A stretch of DNA of 64,000 bases, taken from the NCBI GenBank assembly GCA_965601925.1, contig OZ271854.1, forward strand, positions 2,304,001-2,368,000, written 5' to 3'. The stretch comes from Alkalispirochaeta sp. Lineage in GTDB: Bacteria; Spirochaetota; Spirochaetia; DSM-27196; Alkalispirochaetaceae. Positions 33,784 to 44,114 of this stretch are shown here, one piece after another. The translations under genes were made by a program, and so were the position numbers. Position 1 is the stretch's first letter, and each line of letters begins with the position of its first letter. A model generated the notes under the pieces. The model was given only the letters and a program-made list of their open reading frames with translations, made no database searches and was not told where the DNA came from.

Positions 33784-34017
33784 ATGAAAGAAATTGCCCG
33801 TCATACGGCAGGCCGGATTTATTTGGTGCTGCTCTTGCTGTCGGTCGTCGGGTTCATCGTCTTCTTGGCGATGGGCGGAACGGATGTCGCCGAGAATGGT
33901 GAGCCGATCGTGCTATTCGGTTGGATGACGATGCCGCTGGTCTCGGGAGTCGCCTTCGTTGCATTCTGGCTCATAACCTACATCGTCTACTACTTCTTCT
34001 TTTGGCCGTACCGATAG
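33784..34017 (+). CDS. Small 2-TM protein, likely accessory subunit of the Na+/solute symporter
   Basis: 77 aa with two hydrophobic helices, directly upstream of the SSS gene, an arrangement common for this transporter family. Confidence 0.7.
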   Translation: MKEIARHTAGRIYLVLLLLSVVGFIVFLAMGGTDVAENGEPIVLFGWMTMPLVSGVAFVAFWLITYIVYYFFFWPYR

Positions 34018-34025
34018 GAGGGCAC

Positions 34026-35570
34026 ATGGTATTTTCCATCTCGGCATTGAGCCTGTTCGGCATCGTGATCGTTCTTATGGCCGCATACGGCTATCGCATA
34101 TCGGCCAAGACCGCAGAGGACTATATGCTCGGCGGGCGAACGATCGGCGTCGTGGTGATGTTTTTCTTCGTTCTCTTTGCGATTTCTTCCGCATGGACGT
34201 TTTACGGGTTTCCCGGTCTCCTCTATACCCAAGGTCCCGGATACGTGATGTTCATTTGGGGCAGTGTCGCCGGTTTTGCCGGCCTCTACATGTTCTTGGG
34301 ACCACGTTTGTGGGCGTTGGCCAAGATCAATCGATTTCTCAGCCCGGTCGAGGTGCTTGCGGAGCGATACCGGTCGCCGATGCTACGCCTCATTTTGAGC
34401 TTAAGTATTCTCGCCTTTATCGTCCCCTATGTTGGAATCCAGCCCTTGGGAGTCGGCGCCGGATTTGAGGCGCTTACGGGGTTGCCCGCCTTTTGGGGAG
34501 CGTTGTATACGACGGTCATCCTCGTCGTCCTGGTTCTGCTGGGTGGGATGCGCATCGTCGCATGGGTCAACATTTTTCTCGGTGTCGTGTATATGACCGC
34601 CCTGTTGGGGAGTTTGTTGTGGGGCGTGCAAGTGCTCTTTCCCGACGGCGGGTTGACTCAGGCTGTGGCTACCTTGGCCGAGACGCGACCGGCGATGCTC
34701 TCAACCCCGGGACCGACGGGCGACTACACGCCCGTAGTGTTGGGAGGTACCTTCGTCGTCGGTATTCTCGCGTTCAGCTGGCCGCACGTGGCGATCGGTT
34801 GCATGACCGCGCGTGACAAGTCGCTCTTCAAGTGGTTTCCGATGCTGATTTTCATCTTCGGAGGGCTCTTTTTCTACATCATTCCCTTTATCTGGGGGTC
34901 GATCGTCGCTCCTGCCGCTTTACCGCTTCAGGAACTGGAGGCGCTTGCCGTCCAAAACGGCGTGGAACTCCAGACCGAGGCCGATAGAGTCGTACAGACG
35001 ATCATTTCACGGAGCTTACCCGAATGGTTCGGCGTCTTCGTTCTGCTCGGCGTCATTGCCGCTGCGGTAAGCACCGCGGCGGTGCAGCTCATGACCTCGA
35101 GCGTCATCGTAAGTCGTGACGTGATTCAAGGACTCTTTTTGCCCGATGCTCGAGACGAGCAAATCACCCGTTGGGCGCGTTTGGCGGTCGTTGCGATCGT
35201 TGTGCTCAGTCTGATCGTAAGCTTTCTCTACCGCGGCGCTATGGCGCTTTATCTGACCGACGTAAGTGTTCCGGGATTCGCGCAGTGGGCTCCCGCGCTG
35301 GTAGGCGGGCTCTTGTGGAAGCGCGGCACCAAACAGGGGGCGGTGGCCGGTACCCTTGCCGGCGTCATCTACCTCGTAGCGAGTCTTCTCGTCGTCGTCG
35401 GCGGAGAGCGGATTCTGGTAGTCGGCCACCCGGTGATCGCGAGCCTTTTGGTGAATACCCTCGTGTATATCATCGTGAGTTTCGCGACACCTCGTCCGGA
35501 CGAGGAGATCGAGACCGTATTCTTCGACGAGGTCGACGCGTATCTCGCCGCCGAGTCGGGATCGCGCTGA
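34026..35570 (+). CDS. Sodium:solute symporter (SSS) family transporter
   Basis: EDYMLGGR, SAWTFYGFPG, GGMR and AAAVSTA; about 13 TM; GGAGG RBS. Confidence 0.92.
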   Translation: MVFSISALSLFGIVIVLMAAYGYRISAKTAEDYMLGGRTIGVVVMFFFVLFAISSAWTFYGFPGLLYTQGPGYVMFIWGSVAGFAGLYMFLGPRLWALAKINRFLSPVEVLAERYRSPMLRLILSLSILAFIVPYVGIQPLGVGAGFEALTGLPAFWGALYTTVILVVLVLLGGMRIVAWVNIFLGVVYMTALLGSLLWGVQVLFPDGGLTQAVATLAETRPAMLSTPGPTGDYTPVVLGGTFVVGILAFSWPHVAIGCMTARDKSLFKWFPMLIFIFGGLFFYIIPFIWGSIVAPAALPLQELEALAVQNGVELQTEADRVVQTIISRSLPEWFGVFVLLGVIAAAVSTAAVQLMTSSVIVSRDVIQGLFLPDARDEQITRWARLAVVAIVVLSLIVSFLYRGAMALYLTDVSVPGFAQWAPALVGGLLWKRGTKQGAVAGTLAGVIYLVASLLVVVGGERILVVGHPVIASLLVNTLVYIIVSFATPRPDEEIETVFFDEVDAYLAAESGSR

Positions 35571-35584
35571 GACGGAGCGTCGGT

Positions 35585-37135
35585 ATGCCTTTCGGCAGGA
35601 AGAACAAGAAGGCCGGCGTAGCGGCCGAAAGGAGCACGGATCGCCCGTTAGCGAACCGGAATGAGAGGGCGTGGCGTCTCATCTATAATCCCGAGGGCGA
35701 TCCGGCCGATGTAGTCGCCTACGGCGCGGCGGTAGCGGAAGGGCGTATCGCGGGCAAGTATCAACTGAGCAATATCAAGGTTCCCAACACGGTGATCGTG
35801 CAGCGCAGCCGCGTCCCCGGCATCATCGTCGGAGCCGATGTACGCATCGATCGCGCGAACGCGTCACGAGAAGGTATCGAGATCGCGCGCACCCAACGTC
35901 AGGGACGAAACGCCGCCAAAACCGTCGGTACGGTGAGTCTGAGCGAGCTCATGGCGCATTCGTCACGAACTTTCGAGGCGGTCCCGATCGAACCCGACGA
36001 TCCGGCGGTGCTCATTTATACCTCCGGTACGACCGGCAACCCCAAAGGCGTGACACTGACTCACCGCAACTTCCATTTTCAGCTCAATACGATTGTTCGG
36101 TCTCTCGTTTCGTTTACTCAAGACGACCGTGTCATCGGAGTCCTGCCGATGTACCACGTCTTCGGATTGGCCAACTCGCTGGTAGCGGCGATCAATTTCG
36201 GAGCGTGTATCGTTCTCGTTCCCCAGTACAGTCCCGCGGCGCTCCTCGCGGCAATCGCCGATAACAACGCGACGATCATGCCGGCGGTCCCGACGATGTA
36301 CCAGCATCTATTGGCCGTCGCGCGGGCGAGAAAGATCGACATTCCTAAGAGTCTTCGTTTTTGCATATCCGGGGGCGCCGCCCTGCCGGTTACCGTGCTG
36401 CGCAGGTTCATGGACTCATTTGAGACGCAGCTCCTCGAAGGATACGGTCTGACCGAAACGACCTCAAGCGTCTGCGCCAACGGCCAGGGAGGCGTGTTTA
36501 AAGAGGGTAGTATCGGGCCGGCTGCAGACGGGGCCGAGATGAGAATCGTCGACGAGGACGGGAGCGAACTCCCCGACGGCGAGGTCGGTGAGATCGTCAT
36601 TCGTAGCACCACCGTTTTCGCCGGTTACTGGGGCAACCCTCAGGCCACGGACGAAGTGATGAGTGACGACGGATGGTTTCATACCGGCGATTTGGCGTAT
36701 CGCGATGAAGACGGTTTTTTCTTCATAACGGATCGAAAAAAGGACATCATCATTACGCGCGGCTATAACGTGAGCCCCCGAGAGGTCGAGGAGGTTCTCA
36801 TGAGCCATCCTATGATTGCCGACGCTGCGGTGGTCGGATTGCCCGGGCGCAAAGATGACGGCGAGTCTATCGTCGCCTTTGTCGTTACCCACGAGGGCGA
36901 GGTAATGGAAGAGAGCGATGTCGCCGCATTTTGTGACGCCGAGTTGGCACCCTACAAACGTCCGAGAACGATCAATATCGTCACCGCTCTCCCCAAGAGC
37001 GCGACCGGCAAGGTGTTGCGAACGCACCTTCGGGGGGAAGCGGATGATCGACGACTGGTGCAACGCGACGACGCCGAGCCTACCGAGCCCACGCAATCGC
37101 GCCGGGCGGCGGCACCCAATGCGGAGGAGGAGTAG
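35585..37135 (+). CDS. Chimera: lipoate-ligase-like N-terminal fragment + core and C-terminus of an acyl-CoA ligase (ANL family)
   Basis: YTSGTTGNPKG, EGYGLTET, WFHTGD, DRKKD and PKSATGK are intact. The first ~105 aa are not ANL-like (WRLI...PNTVIV...GIEIAR). Confidence 0.85.
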   Translation: MPFGRKNKKAGVAAERSTDRPLANRNERAWRLIYNPEGDPADVVAYGAAVAEGRIAGKYQLSNIKVPNTVIVQRSRVPGIIVGADVRIDRANASREGIEIARTQRQGRNAAKTVGTVSLSELMAHSSRTFEAVPIEPDDPAVLIYTSGTTGNPKGVTLTHRNFHFQLNTIVRSLVSFTQDDRVIGVLPMYHVFGLANSLVAAINFGACIVLVPQYSPAALLAAIADNNATIMPAVPTMYQHLLAVARARKIDIPKSLRFCISGGAALPVTVLRRFMDSFETQLLEGYGLTETTSSVCANGQGGVFKEGSIGPAADGAEMRIVDEDGSELPDGEVGEIVIRSTTVFAGYWGNPQATDEVMSDDGWFHTGDLAYRDEDGFFFITDRKKDIIITRGYNVSPREVEEVLMSHPMIADAAVVGLPGRKDDGESIVAFVVTHEGEVMEESDVAAFCDAELAPYKRPRTINIVTALPKSATGKVLRTHLRGEADDRRLVQRDDAEPTEPTQSRRAAAPNAEEE

Positions 37136-37141
37136 CGACCG

Positions 37142-38071
37142 ATGGCGCTCTTTAAGAAGACTGTTGATATCGACGTACCGATCGGCCTCGGGCACGCGTT
37201 GGAGGCCGTAGTCGCCGCCAGAAAAAAGGGCGAGGCGATCCGCATGGAGGGGCGCGTCTGGACGTATCAAGAGTTGGATGAGCACTCGAGTCGCGTCGCC
37301 GGCGGTCTCGCGTCTCTCGGGATCGGTCGCGGCGATCGCGTTGCGATGATGCTCCCCAACATTCCGGAGTTCGTGTTTACCTTTTTCGGCGTCCAGAAGC
37401 TGGGAGCAGTAGCGGTGCCGTTCAATACAATGTACAAGGGACGGGAGATCAGCTTCATTCTCAAAGACTCGGGCGCGAAGGCGATCGTGTGTCTTTCGAG
37501 CTTCGCCAATCTCATTAACGAGATCAAGAGCGACTGCCCGGATCTCGAGCACGTCGTTGTGACCGGGCAACGCACCCTCGTATTCGTCGACCCCGACGCC
37601 ACGGTCAACATTCAGATGGTCGTTGAGGCGACGACCTTCGATTCCGCCGATGATGCGTTTCGCACCATGGGGGAGGTTTTGGTCGAGACCTACCACTCCC
37701 TCGGCGTCGAGGACGTCTGGTACAAGCATCAAGGCGCAATCCGTTCGCGCGGTAAAAAACTCGCCGTAATGCTGCTGCGTGAGATCGAAGGGCTTTACAT
37801 CTTCAACATAGTAACGTACCTGCGCCAGATGAGTACCGACTCGCTCTTCAAGGTGATCTACGTACCGCCGGAGATCAAAGAACGCGCTCTGGAACCGATG
37901 ACCAGCATCGAGGAACAGACCGGTACCGCGCCCGGTTTGGACACTTTTCGCGATACGTTATCAGCGGCTCTTGAAAAACGGCTCGCTGTGAACTTGGAAC
38001 CGGGGCAGCTGACTCGCGATGAGATTTTGGCGTATGAGAAAAATCGTGCTTTGGCGGCGCGGAGTGTTTGA
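37142..38071 (+). CDS. Chimera: N-terminal ~140 aa of an acyl-CoA ligase + C-terminal half of a lipoate-ligase-like fold
   Basis: TYQELD, GDRVAMMLPN and GAVAVPFN, followed by RGKKLA, VIYVPPE, MTSIEE and LEPGQLTRDE. Confidence 0.8.
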   Translation: MALFKKTVDIDVPIGLGHALEAVVAARKKGEAIRMEGRVWTYQELDEHSSRVAGGLASLGIGRGDRVAMMLPNIPEFVFTFFGVQKLGAVAVPFNTMYKGREISFILKDSGAKAIVCLSSFANLINEIKSDCPDLEHVVVTGQRTLVFVDPDATVNIQMVVEATTFDSADDAFRTMGEVLVETYHSLGVEDVWYKHQGAIRSRGKKLAVMLLREIEGLYIFNIVTYLRQMSTDSLFKVIYVPPEIKERALEPMTSIEEQTGTAPGLDTFRDTLSAALEKRLAVNLEPGQLTRDEILAYEKNRALAARSV

Positions 38072-38096: not shown

Positions 38097-38735
38097 CTAT
38101 CGCGCTACGGCCTCGAAGTTGGCAAGGTCCATGGTGTCGTCGGACATTTGCATGGCGTGCATACCGCGTTCGGTAATGCGCGCTACCGTGTCGGGTTCCA
38201 GATAGAGCGAGCTCATGATCGGTACGACGTCACGGCCGCCGTACTCAGGAAAGTAGTCTAAAACTTCGAGATATGTGTCGGCAAACGAGTCGATGTACTC
38301 GCGACGCATCGTCGCTTTCGTTTCGTTGACGTAGAGCGTGCCGGCCGTTACGGCGATCACATCGAACTCGCGCCGTTTGCCCGGAGTGTTCGGATGTCGC
38401 CGGCGGGGGCGCACCATGAGGAGGTCGAGGTCCTCCTCCGCCACGTTGAAGTAACGACCGAGCACGCCCGGGACGTTGGGGGCTACGATGTCCTCCACGA
38501 TGGTCCCTAAACGATTCGCGAGGTCTCCCCACCGGCGATTAAGAGATCTCCTATCGGCGCGCATTTCATCTTTGAAGGTGTGCATCTCTTCCTTAAATGT
38601 GCGCATTTCCTCCTTGAACTCCTTCATCTCGTGAGAGAGGAGCTCGATCGACCGCTCGGTACGCAATTGGGCGTACGCGAGCTCTTTTAACGCCCATTCG
38701 ATCTCGGAGACGCGGGGTTCCAGCGCCGACGACAT
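38097..38735 (-). CDS. Coiled-coil heptad-repeat protein with PD-(D/E)XK-like C-terminal domain (DUF3782-like)
   Basis: EMKEFKEEMRTFKEEMHTFKDEM repeats, WGDLANRLGTIVED and EFDVIA...NETK; RBS GGAGG. Confidence 0.7.
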   Translation of the reverse strand: MSSALEPRVSEIEWALKELAYAQLRTERSIELLSHEMKEFKEEMRTFKEEMHTFKDEMRADRRSLNRRWGDLANRLGTIVEDIVAPNVPGVLGRYFNVAEEDLDLLMVRPRRRHPNTPGKRREFDVIAVTAGTLYVNETKATMRREYIDSFADTYLEVLDYFPEYGGRDVVPIMSSLYLEPDTVARITERGMHAMQMSDDTMDLANFEAVAR

Positions 38736-38834
38736 GTCTTCCCTCCGCCTAGTGGCCACGGTATACAGTGTATAGCACCGCAAAGCGGAACGTCACGCTT
38801 TTTGTGTACCGGCGATACGTGTCGCGTCCGTGTA

Positions 38835-40268
38835 TTACCCGTATGTTTCGACGTAGGCCTCAAAGGCGTCGTGGAAGCACGTTTCCGGCGGCTTTACGAG
38901 ACCTGCGCCGACCATTCCGACACCCGGGTCTTTGTGCGCGATACCGGTATTGATCGCGGGGAGTACGCCCGTTTCCACCACCTTGACGACGTCGATCGCC
39001 GTCGGCGTGCCGCGAAAATCCATCGCCGGAATCTGATACGCATCGTTCTCGGCCATCGTAATCTCATACATCTGACGGGTAACGTTCAACGCATCGGCCG
39101 GCTTGCCGCCTACGAACTTGACGATCGCCGGGGCCGCCGCCATCGCAAAGCCCCCGATACCGCTCGTTTCGGTGATGACTGAGTCTCCGATGTCTCGCGC
39201 TGCGTCGTCTGCGGTGAAACCGGGAAGATAGAGCCCGTCGATCACCGACGCCGGTCCGGTGAACCATCGATCGGGCATCGATGAGATGCGGATACCGAAC
39301 TCCGTTCCGTTACGCGCCATGGTATAGATGAACGAACTCCCATCGATACCGGCCGCCGCGTCGACGGTGCACTTCGCCGCCGGCATCGTCAGGTTGAGAA
39401 AGAAGTGATCGTTCTCGTGCATGAAGCGCAGTACGCGCGCGATCTTCTCCCGCGGCTCCTCAAGCATCACCAAGTACGGCGCCGTCTCCCGAATGAAAAG
39501 ACTCGTGCCGGCGCGATTACGATTGTGTCCCTCATCGCCCATTTGAAGCACTTGGGCGATGAGGTTTTTCATATCTATCGGGCCGTGGGCCCGCAACGCT
39601 GCGCCCAAGATCGGCGCGAGTTCGTCCGCCATCCACCTAAGGCGGTCGATCACCTCTTGTGAGTTGGCTCCGTAGCGCAGCACCTTGCCCAGTCCTTCGT
39701 TGAGTGTGCAGTAGGCACGGTTACCGAACGCGGCGTTCTCCATGATCCATACGGGCATACTGGCGGTCACCACGCCCGCCATGGGGCCGACGGCGCTATG
39801 GTGATGACACGGATCGAACGTTATCTCTCCGGACGCCGCGAGCTTCTCGGCTTCCTCTCGATCGGATGCCAGTCCTTCGTATATCAGACCGCCGATTACC
39901 GCACCGCGCAGCGGACCGGACATGTCGAACCACTCCACCGGCGGCCCGGCGTGGAGGATGAGTTTCTTGTGCATACCGGGAACCACGTCGGCGGCGATGC
40001 CGATATCGACGAGGGTAGGCTTGCCGGCCTGCACGCGTCGTACCGCCTCTGCGTTGGCCTCCTTGCGGTTGAGCGTACCCGACGCTTCGGCCGCCTCGAG
40101 ACGATCGAAGAGCGAGATCAAATGAGCGTTGCCCCCGGCCGGCGGTCGCCAGTCCACCTGAAGCGTTCGTACGTCCAGGGACCGAAGTGTATCCGCAAAT
40201 CCTTCGAGTCCCAGATTGACGACTTTGAGATCTTGTTTGAATAGATCGTTAATGCTCTTGACGTTCAT
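38835..40268 (-). CDS. ylbE: DUF1116 protein (YlbE/YahG; AllG-like carbamoyltransferase subunit)
   Basis: ILHAGPP, PCHHHSAVGPMAG, LQMGDEGHNRN, MARNG, DIGDSVITET and INTGIAH. Confidence 0.88.
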   Translation of the reverse strand: MNVKSINDLFKQDLKVVNLGLEGFADTLRSLDVRTLQVDWRPPAGGNAHLISLFDRLEAAEASGTLNRKEANAEAVRRVQAGKPTLVDIGIAADVVPGMHKKLILHAGPPVEWFDMSGPLRGAVIGGLIYEGLASDREEAEKLAASGEITFDPCHHHSAVGPMAGVVTASMPVWIMENAAFGNRAYCTLNEGLGKVLRYGANSQEVIDRLRWMADELAPILGAALRAHGPIDMKNLIAQVLQMGDEGHNRNRAGTSLFIRETAPYLVMLEEPREKIARVLRFMHENDHFFLNLTMPAAKCTVDAAAGIDGSSFIYTMARNGTEFGIRISSMPDRWFTGPASVIDGLYLPGFTADDAARDIGDSVITETSGIGGFAMAAAPAIVKFVGGKPADALNVTRQMYEITMAENDAYQIPAMDFRGTPTAIDVVKVVETGVLPAINTGIAHKDPGVGMVGAGLVKPPETCFHDAFEAYVETYG

Positions 40269-40279
40269 GGTGTGCTCCT

Positions 40280-41845
40280 TCAGCGCGATCCCAATGCGGC
40301 CATAATCCGCCCCGCGAGCCGTGCCGCTTGATGGTTCGACGGCATGACGACCGCTCCCGCATCTTCCAGCGTACTGCGTTGCGTCGACAGACGTTGGACG
40401 TCTCCCTCGGTGCCGGTTACGCTCGCCACGACGGCCAGATAGCCGCCGCGTTGTGCCGCCGCCTCTTTCATCATCCGGATCGCCGGGGCGAGCGCGCCCG
40501 CGGGGTCGGGATGGCTGCCGTATCCGATAACGCAGTCCAAAATGACGACCGCCACCTCGGTGTCGGCAGCCTCTCGCTCCATGCGTTCGGTGCGTATGGA
40601 CGGATCGATCATCGGGTGCGGCCGTCCGACGGTAAAGATATCTTCGCCCAGATCCACGATCGTGTGTTGTTGCGAGACGTGCGGATCGCGCAGCGCAAAT
40701 TGTCGGTCCGCGGGATCGAAGGAGTGCACGCCGCCCAACGCATCGTTGAGCACGAAGACGGCCTCGTCGGTGAGCGTTCCGCCGGTGAAGTAACCGCGCA
40801 GATACCGTTGGCCCGATGCGATGCTCGCGGTCTCCCGTTCGACAATTGCGTCGATGTGTTCGTCCGAGAGCGCAAAGGGCCGTTCACGATATGATCTCCC
40901 TTTCGCGAGCGCAACGGCCGAGAGGGCGGCCTCTTCCAGGTTGCCGGCGTAGTGGAGTGTGCTGCCGGTCGCCGACGCGTCTCGTTGTAACCCGATGAGG
41001 TGCACGACCGCCGGCTTACCCGTCTTCTCGAGCGAGGCGAGCACCGTGTCGGCCACCGCCGGCGCAGGGGGCTTCGAGATGACGACGATGACCTTCGTCT
41101 CATCGTCCGCGGCAAGCGCCTCGATGGCCATCAGCGTCGTCGATCCGCCGACCTCTTCACTTTTGAGATCACGGCCTCCGGTACCGATCGCCTGCCGTAC
41201 TCCGCCTCCCGCCTTCGCAATCAGACTCGTAACTTCCTGTAATCCGGTGCCGGACGCGCTCACAACGCCGATCGATCCCTCCGGCACTACATTGGCGAAG
41301 CACAGAGGCTTACCGTTAATGATTGCCGTGCCGCAGTCGGGACCCATCATGAGTAAGCCTCGCTCGCGGGCGATTCGCTTGAGTGCGACCTCCTCGTCGA
41401 GCCCGACATTGTCGGAGAACATCATAACGTGACGGCCGGATACGAGCGCCTTGCGCGCCTCACGTGCGGCGTACTGTCCGGGGAGCGATATTACAACCAG
41501 GTTCGCGTCGCTCATCGCCTCGAACGCCGCGGCCGTGCTCGCCGGACGCCATCGCTCTCCTTCGCCCTCGTCGGCTTTTTTGCGGAGGAGCGCGTCGACC
41601 GTCTCTTCGGCGATCGATGCAACGTCCGCGGAGTCCGCATCGACGGCGATGATAAGATCGTTGGCGGTCGCGCCGTCAAGCTCGGTTCCGCCCAGCTTCA
41701 TGTCGTTCAGAAGATCGAGGTTCATCTCGGTTCCCATAGCGACGACCGCCTCCGAGATACCCTCCATCTTTTTTATGTCGGCGCTGATCAACATGAGGAA
41801 CACCGAATCGTAGTATGAGTCCTTGCGTAGGATGATCCGCTTCAT
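40280..41845 (-). CDS. fdrA: FdrA/YahF acyl-CoA-synthetase-like protein (AllF-like)
   Basis: YYDSVFLM, MFSDNV, MGPDCGT, SASGTG, GTGGRD and GRPHPMIDP. Start at ATG 41845. Confidence 0.9.
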   Translation of the reverse strand: MKRIILRKDSYYDSVFLMLISADIKKMEGISEAVVAMGTEMNLDLLNDMKLGGTELDGATANDLIIAVDADSADVASIAEETVDALLRKKADEGEGERWRPASTAAAFEAMSDANLVVISLPGQYAAREARKALVSGRHVMMFSDNVGLDEEVALKRIARERGLLMMGPDCGTAIINGKPLCFANVVPEGSIGVVSASGTGLQEVTSLIAKAGGGVRQAIGTGGRDLKSEEVGGSTTLMAIEALAADDETKVIVVISKPPAPAVADTVLASLEKTGKPAVVHLIGLQRDASATGSTLHYAGNLEEAALSAVALAKGRSYRERPFALSDEHIDAIVERETASIASGQRYLRGYFTGGTLTDEAVFVLNDALGGVHSFDPADRQFALRDPHVSQQHTIVDLGEDIFTVGRPHPMIDPSIRTERMEREAADTEVAVVILDCVIGYGSHPDPAGALAPAIRMMKEAAAQRGGYLAVVASVTGTEGDVQRLSTQRSTLEDAGAVVMPSNHQAARLAGRIMAALGSR

Positions 41846-41898
41846 CGTGAACCTCTCTTTCCGTGGTACGTAGACGCTATACCCGCCGGCGATTCGTG

Positions 41899-42759
41899 TC
41901 AAACCGACGGCACGGTGTCGTCTCGCGGTCGAACCTGTAGTCCCCATAAGAGCCCCGTCAGAGCGTCGAGTCCGGAGCTGTGGCCGTGCGAACGTGCGAT
42001 TCTAATAGCCTCCGCGACGCGTCCCGTGGCGAGCGCATCTACGATGCGCAGTTGGTAGGTCGGCGGATAGCCGGCCAGCGCGACGCGCAAGAGCGAGGCG
42101 CCGCCGGCGGTAGTCTTGGACAACGCGCGTTCTACCTCGTCGTGGTCTACGAGCCGTGTGCCGAGGAGGATTTCGGCGGCGAGCACACCGCTGACGAAAT
42201 CGTCTCCCGACGGTGTAAACCCGCCGCCCAACCCCACCAGGCGGGCGATCGCACGGGATCGTGGGGTCGACCCGCCGTACAGCGTCGCGACGGCACGGTG
42301 GACGAAGGGGTCGTCGTCGAATCGACGGCTGTGTTCCGAGGACGCGGGATCGATAAGGAGTGCTACGAAGCCGATCGTCCCGTGGTCGATAAGGAGGCGG
42401 TCCCGGGCCGTCGATATCGTGCGTGTCGACGGACGGGTCGTCGGTGAGGGGCGCGGCGGCGTCGGCCCGCGCTCAACGGGGAACGACGTCTCAGCGTTTC
42501 CGACGACGAGCACTCCCTCGGCCGTTAAGAGCACCGGAACGGTCGTCCCTTCGCTCCGCGTCGCCGTCGTAATGACGGGCCACATCGCGTGGGGCACCGC
42601 AATGGATAGTTCGGTCCAATCTCCGCGATCGCGCGTCAATGAGACGAAGTACGCGCCGCGCCGGTCCCGTAGCGCGATATTGACGGCTGCGTCGTGAACA
42701 CTCGCGACGGTTCCCGCGAAGCGTTCGGGGACGAGCTTTCCACGCGTTAGCTGGGCCAT
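41899..42759 (-). CDS. ylbF: DUF2877 protein (YlbF/YahE; AllH-like)
   Basis: LVGLGGGFTPSGDD and GHSSGLD. Confidence 0.85.
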   Translation of the reverse strand: MAQLTRGKLVPERFAGTVASVHDAAVNIALRDRRGAYFVSLTRDRGDWTELSIAVPHAMWPVITTATRSEGTTVPVLLTAEGVLVVGNAETSFPVERGPTPPRPSPTTRPSTRTISTARDRLLIDHGTIGFVALLIDPASSEHSRRFDDDPFVHRAVATLYGGSTPRSRAIARLVGLGGGFTPSGDDFVSGVLAAEILLGTRLVDHDEVERALSKTTAGGASLLRVALAGYPPTYQLRIVDALATGRVAEAIRIARSHGHSSGLDALTGLLWGLQVRPRDDTVPSV

Positions 42760-42890: not shown

Positions 42891-44114
42891 TCAGGCGCTC
42901 TTGAAGCTCTTGAAGTTGATGAGGATGTTGAGAGCGATTCCGACGATCGCCGACAGGGCGAGGCCGGAGAAGGTCACCTGGCCGAGACTGAACTCGGCTC
43001 CGCCGAGACCGAGCACGAGCATAGCTGCGGATATGATCAGCGGTTGCGGCTTGTTCATGTCGACCTGCGCCTCAACCATGTTGCGGATACCGATCGCCGA
43101 GATCATACCGAAGAGCAGGATCGATATACCGCCGATGACCGAGCCCGGTATGGTGCCGATGAGTGCCGTGAACTTGGGAATCACCGAGAGCACGATCGCG
43201 AAGATCGCGGCGATGCGCATAACGAGCGGATTGTATACTCCGGTCAAGGCGACCGCGCCGGTGTTCTCGCTATAGGTGGTGTTTGCTGGGCCACCGAGAA
43301 GTGCGGAGAGCGACGTCGCGAGACCGTCACCGAGGAGGGTGCGATTGACGCCCGGATCGTCCAGGAAGTCTTTCTTTACGACGTTTCCGATAGCGATCAC
43401 GTCGCCGAAGTGTTCCACCATCGTCACCAACGCGACGGGAACGATCAACGCCATGGCGCCGCCGGCGAACTTGGGAAACATAAACTCGGGGAGTCCTATC
43501 CAACGCGCCTCACCGACGCTCGAAAAGTCGACCGCACCGGCGATGAGGGCGATGACGTACCCGATCACGAGGGCGAATAAGACGGGAAGCATCGAGAGAA
43601 ACTTGAAGCCGATACGCTCGAATCCGACCTTCACGAATACGCCGACCGCGAATGTAATGACGGCGATCGTCCAGTTGCTGCTGGCGCTGCCGACGGCGAC
43701 CGGTGCGAGGCTCATACCGATGAGGATGATGATCGGCCCGGTAACGTGGGGGGGCAGGATTTTGTGCAAGACGTCGTGGGAGACGAAGGTAAAGATGAGC
43801 GATACCACGGCATACACGAGACCCGCGATGAGGATACCTCCGGTCGCGTAGGCAAGGTCGCCGCCGAAGTTTTCGGCTACGGCCAGTATCGGCGGTATGA
43901 ACGCGAACGAGCTGCCCAAAAAGACGGGGACTTTGAATTTCGTCAGTACGTGGAATAACAGCGTTCCCAGCCCCGCAGCGAATAGCGCCACGCCGACGCT
44001 GAGCCCGGTGATTATCGGCACCAGAACGGTAGCACCGAACATCACGAAGGTGTGCTGCAAGCCCAGGATTACCGTCTGTCCGCTAATCCCTTCCTGTTTG
44101 ATCGTGTCGGACAT
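42891..44114 (-). CDS. NCS2 nucleobase permease, UraA/PyrP (uracil) type
   Basis: GLQH, FLGSSFAF, EHFGD and signature NTTYSEN. Glu at this position matches UraA; xanthine/urate transporters have Gln. Confidence 0.88.
   Translation of the reverse strand: MSDTIKQEGISGQTVILGLQHTFVMFGATVLVPIITGLSVGVALFAAGLGTLLFHVLTKFKVPVFLGSSFAFIPPILAVAENFGGDLAYATGGILIAGLVYAVVSLIFTFVSHDVLHKILPPHVTGPIIILIGMSLAPVAVGSASSNWTIAVITFAVGVFVKVGFERIGFKFLSMLPVLFALVIGYVIALIAGAVDFSSVGEARWIGLPEFMFPKFAGGAMALIVPVALVTMVEHFGDVIAIGNVVKKDFLDDPGVNRTLLGDGLATSLSALLGGPANTTYSENTGAVALTGVYNPLVMRIAAIFAIVLSVIPKFTALIGTIPGSVIGGISILLFGMISAIGIRNMVEAQVDMNKPQPLIISAAMLVLGLGGAEFSLGQVTFSGLALSAIVGIALNILINFKSFKSA

Follow-up and report, generated by a model that had tools for sequence, protein, structure and literature searches.

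The window analysed here is a stretch of 64,000 nucleotides from the spirochete Alkalispirochaeta sp. (contig OZ271854.1, positions 2,304,001 to 2,368,000). It contains two adjacent forward-strand genes, gene A (35585..37135, 516 amino acids) and gene B (37142..38071, 309 amino acids), which are reciprocal chimeras of two unrelated folds. Gene A joins the N-terminal part of a lipoate-protein ligase (LplA)-type catalytic domain to the C-terminal part of an acyl-coenzyme A (CoA) ligase (LplA-N::acyl-CoA-ligase-C), and gene B joins the two complementary pieces (acyl-CoA-ligase-N::LplA-C). The explanation that I favor, with moderate confidence, is that the two products form an obligate heterodimer, an acyl-CoA ligase acting on the substrate of a symporter encoded just upstream, and that the LplA fold has been recruited as a clamp and binding module.

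Anatomy of the two chimeric genes

In gene A, residues 30–110 (35672..35914, forward strand) correspond to the N-terminal part of the LplA-type catalytic domain, and in the alignment this segment ends in a remodelled lipoate-binding loop, RxxRxGR. Residues 115–492 (35927..37060, forward strand) make up an acyl-CoA ligase from just upstream of the P-loop to its end, with all catalytic motifs, and match positions 151–384 of the Pfam AMP-binding profile as well as AMP-binding_C. Gene B starts after a spacing of 6 nucleotides, and opens with the N-terminal subdomain that is absent from A (residues 1–142, 37142..37567, forward strand; AMP-binding positions 5–126 at residues 24–139). It continues with the remainder of the LplA catalytic domain, without an LplB domain (residues 143–309, 37568..38068, forward strand; LplA-B_cat positions 68–199 at residues 147–277). 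The LplA-B_cat match of this B tail is under the cut-off (E = 2.7e-4), and three of the four relatives' tails scanned are above it. For the leading segment of A, no Pfam match was obtained in any of the five copies scanned.

Comparison with intact LplA-like proteins places both segments. The leading segment of A aligns with the N-terminus of these proteins (first 76 residues; hhalign 97.1%, and 31% identity over 77 amino acids by BLASTP, E = 1e-8), and the B tail aligns with their residues 82–245, starting one residue past the GGG loop (hhalign 99.9%). The two pieces thus tile the LplA catalytic domain, meeting in the GGG loop. Of 77 complete copies of B, 75 end 163–166 amino acids past the junction. 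With a profile built from 16 B tails, a search of 1.84 billion representative sequences gave 65 matches, and those beyond the family itself and its fragments are intact LplA-like proteins of ∼365 amino acids, with named matches from Jordarchaeia/Freyarchaeota, Sulfolobus and Bathyarchaeota.

The structural comparisons point the same way for B. Its predicted C-terminal half superposes (VIA-align) on LipB (Z 14.1, root-mean-square deviation (rmsd) 2.2, 126 residues aligned) and on LplA (Z 12.2, rmsd 3.3, 151 aligned), and biotin ligases superpose too. For residues 1–142 in the model of B alone, Foldseek retrieved N-terminal domains of the ANL family, at an rmsd of 1.6–2.5 Å for many of the best matches. 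The LplA piece of A is absent from its Foldseek list, which ANL matches filled; profile searches of both LplA segments against PDB sequences returned nothing significant, and for the B tail the ESM Atlas gave only leads below 0.9, with LplA-B_cat clusters at 0.80–0.81. A first-pass annotation, made from the DNA letters alone, had described the genes as reciprocal LplA/acyl-CoA-ligase chimeras, with the non-ANL segments in the BPL/LplA/LipB fold and the split inside the RRxxGGG-AVxxD loop. The complementary Pfam spans, both hhalign results, the fold match for B and the alignment all agree with this description.

The ligase motifs are conserved across the family: in 171 A sequences, the core residues of YTSGTTGxPKG, PxxH, SGG, EGYGLTE, TGD, DRKKD..G and PKSATGK are 96–100% conserved. 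In the a3–a10 labels used for ANL motifs, A possesses the P-loop (a3), the a4 His, the a5 YGxTE, the a7 Asp, the a8 hinge Arg/Gly and the a10 Lys. The complete ANL N-terminal domain is reached only by A and B together, as expected from the earlier proposal that A carries all the catalytic motifs and B begins with A's missing N-terminal part. Scored without B's part, A alone obtains 391 against the PRK06187 cut-off of 476. The rejoined ligase aligns over its whole length with intact ligases, at ∼40% identity, the junction showing a gap of 5 residues. For its closest intact neighbours in the tree, the best-scoring families are long-chain-fatty-acid–CoA ligases, under their cut-offs, and from this sequence relationship the best guess for the substrate is a fatty acid of medium or long chain. 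Separately, an unrelated acyl-CoA ligase was found as two open reading frames (ORFs; 201 and 307 amino acids) in a ligase cluster of another genome (L027:228-1760, reverse strand; G029:C11).

Prediction of the A+B complex gave a score of 0.86, with 0.00 for the best control; this mark is attained by 116 of 157 solved pairs and 2 of 215 mismatched pairs, and since the rebuilt folds resemble solved structures, it shows likeness, not binding. The runs concur in at least 90% of contacts, with a partner pLDDT of 86–87. The predicted contacts, listed by residue range, pair A 27–120 with B 137–307 and A 122–227 with B 10–126, and the interface spans both rebuilt folds. Neither crossover product is predicted to fold alone, and the two chains would fold jointly into one obligate heterodimer; the doubly interlocked heterodimer proposed in the first-pass annotation is recovered at the level of prediction.

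The gap between the two genes is at most 15 nucleotides in 53 of 67 loci, with a median of −1. The idea of a programmed frameshift, or of readthrough from A into B, was not supported, as all three frame offsets occur. A natural single-chain fusion was identified, P0318 (825 amino acids, order A then B), the only full-length one among 120 longer proteins listed. In effect, its single chain is an LplA that carries an inserted acyl-CoA ligase in circularly permuted order; P0318 is a single record, with a short internal duplication and two altered ligase motifs.

Conservation and origin of the cassette

Genes A and B belong to a four-gene cassette. It begins with a small hydrophobic protein of 77 amino acids (33784..34017, forward strand), which has no significant Pfam or NCBIfam family and, from its position, is probably a partner subunit of the symporter. 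Next is a sodium:solute symporter of the SSS family (34023..35570, forward strand, 515 amino acids, PF00474). The first-pass annotation had missed that these two genes are part of the unit, as well as its wide distribution and the presence of a second copy in the genome.

A match to B at E below 1e-90 is present in 42 of 61 related genomes, the source genome included. Scanning GTDB genomes yielded 91 confirmed loci, of which 80, from genomes of different species, were kept; 73 of them are labelled Spirochaetota. The same split architecture, which the earlier annotation had proposed looking for in other genomes, recurs throughout: both parts of B are a single ORF in 80/80 loci. Among loci with room, A is one ORF directly upstream of B in 65/68, the symporter is present in 57/60, and the small membrane gene lies upstream of the symporter in 52/55. 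The exceptions are two loci with runs of N (L087, L102), a deletion-like form (L100) and an A+B pair with no symporter (L032). L100 consists of a shortened symporter followed by a single ORF that joins the end of A to B, the middle being deleted, and is either a degraded copy or an assembly error. No further conserved neighbour was found around the cassette in the 80 loci, and the promoter and terminator scan remained at chance level.

The family is patchy across the phylum (12 of 401 genomes), and full cassettes also occur in two further sampled sets: five of 301 genomes in the phylum of G061 (G061, G078, G191, G341 and G276) and four of 201 in that of G062. A complete cassette is found in the cultured Alkalispirochaeta alkalica DSM 8900 (L076). 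The source genome has a second, diverged A+B pair (G000:C1:1096463-1098909, reverse strand; L016:12464-14925), 44–67% identical by segment, without a symporter and divergently oriented from a two-subunit CoA-transferase; in both trees this pair groups with the A. alkalica type. Two public contigs span the cassette, and with it both junctions, for which the first-pass annotation had suggested read mapping, with zero differences; they are possibly the window's own source, and so not independent. Over 10 disjoint pairs of close loci (fewer for the symporter), dN/dS is 0.052 for LplA-N, 0.075 for ligase-C, 0.049 for ligase-N, 0.086 for LplA-C and 0.03 for the symporter. The A and B segments are under strong purifying selection.

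The symporter tree follows those of A and B by inspection. The best NCBIfam model for the symporter is panF, at 116 bits against a cut-off of 328, and the other equivalogs tried also score under their cut-offs (ActP 37/750, MctP 66/625, PutP 103/515 bits); the ESM Atlas gives only the generic SSS label. In two genomes in which B was not found (G112 and G278), an intact acyl-CoA ligase gene is immediately followed by that of a related symporter with 44–47% identity to the query. The surrounding cluster includes ETF- and HdrA-like genes, and in G112 an acyl-CoA dehydrogenase (the ETF assignment was tested with Pfam and NCBIfam in G112 only). The G112 symporter (L192:7507-8775) has 423 amino acids and is without the stretch matching approximately residues 266–393 of the window symporter. 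I also considered docking of the LplA fold on the acidic C-terminal helix of the symporter, but the helix motif is also present in this L192 symporter, beside an intact ligase, and so is not peculiar to the cassette.

To place the origin of the pair, quick LG+G4 trees were built for the LplA part (50 rows) and the ligase part (43 rows). The 26 split rows form one clade in each (SH-aLRT 100 and 99, respectively), with similar internal branching, and the split family has a single origin by both trees. The split LplA part nests within a mostly archaeal intact clade (96), and the split ligase part is sister (89) to the proteins scoring best to long-chain-fatty-acid–CoA ligase families. A single reciprocal crossover would be the simplest account, with breakpoints in the GGG loop of an lplA gene of archaeal type and in the loop that precedes the P-loop of a FadD-like ligase, accompanied by loss of the LplA C-terminal domain; a ligase-bearing circle recombining into lplA, for example, would give this result. 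The one-crossover origin suggested in the first-pass annotation is consistent with the clean junctions and the one clade per tree, the circle being one possible mechanism. A fused A–B form as ancestor was not supported: P0318 nests deep in both trees, and its fusion is therefore likely secondary.

Proposed function of the A+B pair

The LplA part was compared between 26 split and 24 intact rows. Missing from the split proteins are a four-residue lid, the PEK Lys and, within RRxxGGG, both the second Arg and the final Gly. The Asp of ND, in 24/24 intact rows, is absent from at least 25 of the 26 split rows. Lys206 of B (codon 37757–37759) is retained in 25 of the split rows, and the Gly of KxxG is retained in eight early-branching rows and lost in 18 later-branching ones, the window included. 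This is the degenerate site with a kept Lys that the first-pass annotation had noted. In the window proteins, the LplA-derived segments contain no Cys, and none is conserved in the alignment columns shown. The LipM and LipL acyl transferases possess a conserved catalytic Cys. In LipB, the catalytic Cys is C169 (PMC9307952). The motifs that define LplA are the RRxTGGG loop and G(R/K)K(I/L/V)SG (PMC3904984). Neither is intact in the window: the junction cuts the RRxTGGG(A/G)(V/I)xxD loop, with its second Arg and last Gly changed, and of the other motif the Lys is kept and the Gly lost.

The C-terminal (LplB) domain is gone as well, B stopping at the end of the catalytic domain. No conserved LplB-like gene was found around the cassette in the 80 loci, a search that did not extend to a free LplB elsewhere in the genome. 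In Thermoplasma LplA, the C-terminal domain is dispensable for lipoyl transfer (PMC7186572) and required for lipoyl-AMP synthesis (PMC7253636); for a Mycoplasma enzyme the large domain is described as fully active, in the same paper that covers the Thermoplasma LplA/LplB requirement (PMC7186572, PMC7253636). With the LplA-defining motifs and the C-terminal domain lost, the split module is unlikely to be a lipoate ligase. It has new invariant residues of its own, R105, R108, R144, R201 and R292, and the near-invariants D293 (with R292), E251-P252, Q73 and Q158. Mean column identity is 74% and 70% for the LplA parts, and 72% and 79% for the ligase parts. The LplA module is thus as conserved as the ligase core, which suggests that it is more than a relic. 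The first-pass annotation had left the choice between scaffold and acyl-transfer module open; the evidence favors a non-adenylating module under strong selection.

In the proposed mechanism, the symporter would import a carboxylic acid and the A+B heterodimer would convert it to a CoA thioester. The rebuilt LplA fold, its key ligase residues lost, would serve as clamp and binding module, and the arginine-rich surface around the kept Lys may bind either an acidic protein or a ligand that bears phosphate (CoA or acyl-CoA). In LipB, the same fold binds CoA and acyl-ACP (acyl carrier protein) and takes C8-CoA, which shows that such binding is within its capacity (PMC9307952). Several observations weigh against this explanation. 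The retention of Lys206 is not required of a pure binding module. The complex score could stem from resemblance to solved ANL and LplA folds, which is to be expected for the halves of split genes, and the sample of intact ligases in the tree is biased, all but three being of at least 542 amino acids. The beta-oxidation marker 3HCDH_N, with at most 46 candidates scored per genome, was found in 21/42 B-carrying genomes vs. 8/19 others, and not in the single-contig genomes G017 and G028. The cassette is thus not associated with beta-oxidation by this count, and catabolism is not its general purpose. Finally, with at least five further ANL matches in the source genome, a generic fatty-acid role looks redundant.

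Other roles were considered for the imported substrate. Pimelate uptake for biotin synthesis was rejected (BioB in 2/61 genomes), and biotin uptake is not needed, with BioY in 5/5 single-contig genomes. Replacement of pantothenate synthetase is unsupported: PanC was found in 5/61 genomes and PanB in 1/5, and G028 has PanC, PanB and the cassette. The BioB and PanC counts suggest widespread biotin and pantothenate auxotrophy in the group. The symporter is the sole match to the panF model in G017, G030 and G038, and may, from this sequence match, still be a pantothenate transporter.

Of the alternatives, one retains a second active site: the ligase half would activate the imported acid, and the re-tooled LplA fold would pass the acyl group to an acceptor, possibly a lipoyl domain, an acyl carrier protein (ACP) or an unknown amine. 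I regard this as possible, though I would not expect it; if true, one crossover would have swapped the adenylation step of LplA for that of an unrelated family. Rather unlikely is a two-step salvage of lipoate or octanoate, where the symporter imports, the ANL half activates and the LplA fold transfers to a Lys of GcvH or E2, or to another acceptor. Lys206 and the KxxG Gly of all eight early-branching rows argue for it, as do GcvH in 55/61 relatives and the transporter, with a DctM-like gene just upstream in ∼17/24 loci, that intact relatives often follow. Yeast Lip3 reportedly acts with an acyl-CoA synthetase, which would be a precedent. Lipoyl transfer by Thermoplasma LplA without LplB (PMC7186572), with the C-terminal domain needed for lipoyl-AMP (PMC7253636), is also in line with such a division of labor. 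However, the ligase is inserted into the lipoate-binding loop itself, and the core Arg and Gly changed in RRxTGGG define LplA (PMC3904984) and are important for LipB activity (PMC9307952). The 18 later-branching rows are without the KxxG Gly, no conserved Cys is seen for a thioester route, and the surroundings of the cassette in the 80 loci show no conserved gene for a lipoyl carrier. All 42 B-carrying genomes also possess an intact LplA/LipB-family gene, the source genome having LplA, LipB and LipA.

Improbable, to my mind, is an acyl-ACP synthetase whose basic LplA-derived surface docks acidic ACP, the imported fatty acid going to ACP for membrane lipid. The new invariant arginines would fit, the LplA/LipB fold binds acyl-ACP (PMC9307952), and a FabA/FabZ gene is present in 59/61 relatives, whereas there is no beta-oxidation link; but the conserved cassette is without an ACP gene, and two symporter-less copies adjoin CoA-dependent genes. 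One of these (L022) lies beside thiolase, FadB and acyl-CoA dehydrogenase, with A+B ahead of the thiolase and FadB genes; the other is the second copy of the source genome, next to its CoA-transferase pair, and both settings favor the CoA ligase reading. I give similarly little credence to a frozen accident, in which the LplA halves are a dimerisation clamp for the ligase halves and bind nothing else. Most LplA catalytic motifs are indeed gone, many invariant residues lie in the predicted interface (e.g., A 40–56 and B 282–307), and a clamp required for activity would also face purifying selection. Against it, the LplA parts are as conserved as the ligase parts, and several polar, near-invariant residues of B (Y194, H196, R201, K206, E244 and E251) fall outside the listed interface, although contact is still possible for unlisted residues. 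I found nothing in support of two dead genes left by faulty assembly or by a recent rearrangement confined to one strain, and the probability of this reading is negligible: the B chimera in 80/80 loci refutes it, and the source genome holds two diverged copies, dN/dS is at most 0.09 and contigs span both junctions.

Intact LplA-like relatives were found at 38 metagenome loci. In the P0250 group (L128–L151), the LplA-like gene directly follows a TRAP DctPQM transporter in ∼17/24 loci, which form one near-copy clade and in two of which the DctM-like neighbour was tested with Pfam; this is a candidate bacterial operon for the uptake and ligation of lipoate or another carboxylate. In a Sulfolobus-like group (L121–L123; P0244, Sulfolobus sp. 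A20 cluster), the LplA-like gene is found among acyl-CoA dehydrogenase, SCP2 and thiolase-like genes, the latter with a zinc-ribbon partner, joined in L122 by an enoyl-CoA hydratase. At 13 loci of intact relatives, 39 neighbouring ORFs were scanned, and none encodes a lipoyl-domain protein. The P0244-type clade may not act on lipoyl domains.

Directly downstream of B in the window is a gene for a 228-residue coiled-coil protein with a nuclease-like C-terminal part (38097–38783, reverse strand), showing weak DUF3782 and NERD matches, and not conserved with the cassette. Beyond it, FdrA-like, AllG (oxamate carbamoyltransferase) and third ORFs (38835–42759, reverse strand) adjoin a permease-like gene (42891–44114); these are beside the cassette in only 5/80 loci.

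Comparison with known systems

I found no description of the interlocked ligase/LplA layout in the literature searched, with most subscription journals outside its scope. The available text of PMC10332631 does not contain 'AMP-binding', 'acyl-CoA' or 'Spirochaet', and that of bioRxiv 10.64898/2026.10.01.755906 does not contain 'acyl-CoA', 'fusion' or 'Spirochaet'; in both cases the supplement was outside the scope. The novelty lies in the architecture, and the chemistry may prove ordinary.

In gene-fusion theory, domains are usually taken as units. Here, two unrelated folds are cut mid-domain and dealt reciprocally over two genes, and both products are kept in at least three phylum-level groups. 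This would be a natural case of a reciprocal crossover, with neither product expected to fold on its own. The pair also reveals a tolerated insertion site in the ANL fold, of potential use in split-enzyme design, and a family whose two genes are wrongly labelled by annotation pipelines as long-chain acyl-CoA synthetases.

Each component has familiar relatives. The ligases of the FadD/LcfA type (PRK06187, PRK05605, PRK06710) share with A+B all catalytic motifs and ∼40% identity over the rejoined length; A+B differs in being split before the P-loop, in having its halves fused to LplA halves, and in scoring below every curated cut-off shown. LplA shares the catalytic-domain fold and the invariant Lys, and the split form descends from a ∼365-residue, mostly archaeal clade (P0241, P0244). 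The known split LplAs (Thermoplasma LplA/LplB; PDB 2ars, 3r07) divide between whole domains, whereas in A/B the cut falls within the lipoate-binding loop, the C-terminal domain is missing, and the Asp, RR core and GGG are altered. As for the cassette, the acs-yjcH-actP operon likewise combines an enzyme that forms acyl-CoA with an SSS symporter and a small membrane protein, but in the cassette the ligase is the interlocked pair. ActP, MctP and MctC are SSS carboxylate permeases (PMC7918813); the window symporter is far under the ActP and MctP cut-offs, as it is under those of PanF and PutP.

Closest among the known architectures are interrupted adenylation domains that carry an a2–a3 insert. 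In families 3 and 4 of the interrupted adenylation domains of non-ribosomal peptide synthetases (NRPS), as in A/B, a foreign domain is found before the P-loop motif a3 (PMC8341866). The insert is there a methyltransferase, on one chain, and the terms 'split' and 'two genes' are absent from the available text of that article. In A/B, by contrast, the insert is of the LplA type, was entered via its own ligand loop and opened at its natural termini, which leaves both folds shared out over two genes. The host is of the free-standing acyl-CoA ligase type, and the cassette includes no carrier or NRPS genes.

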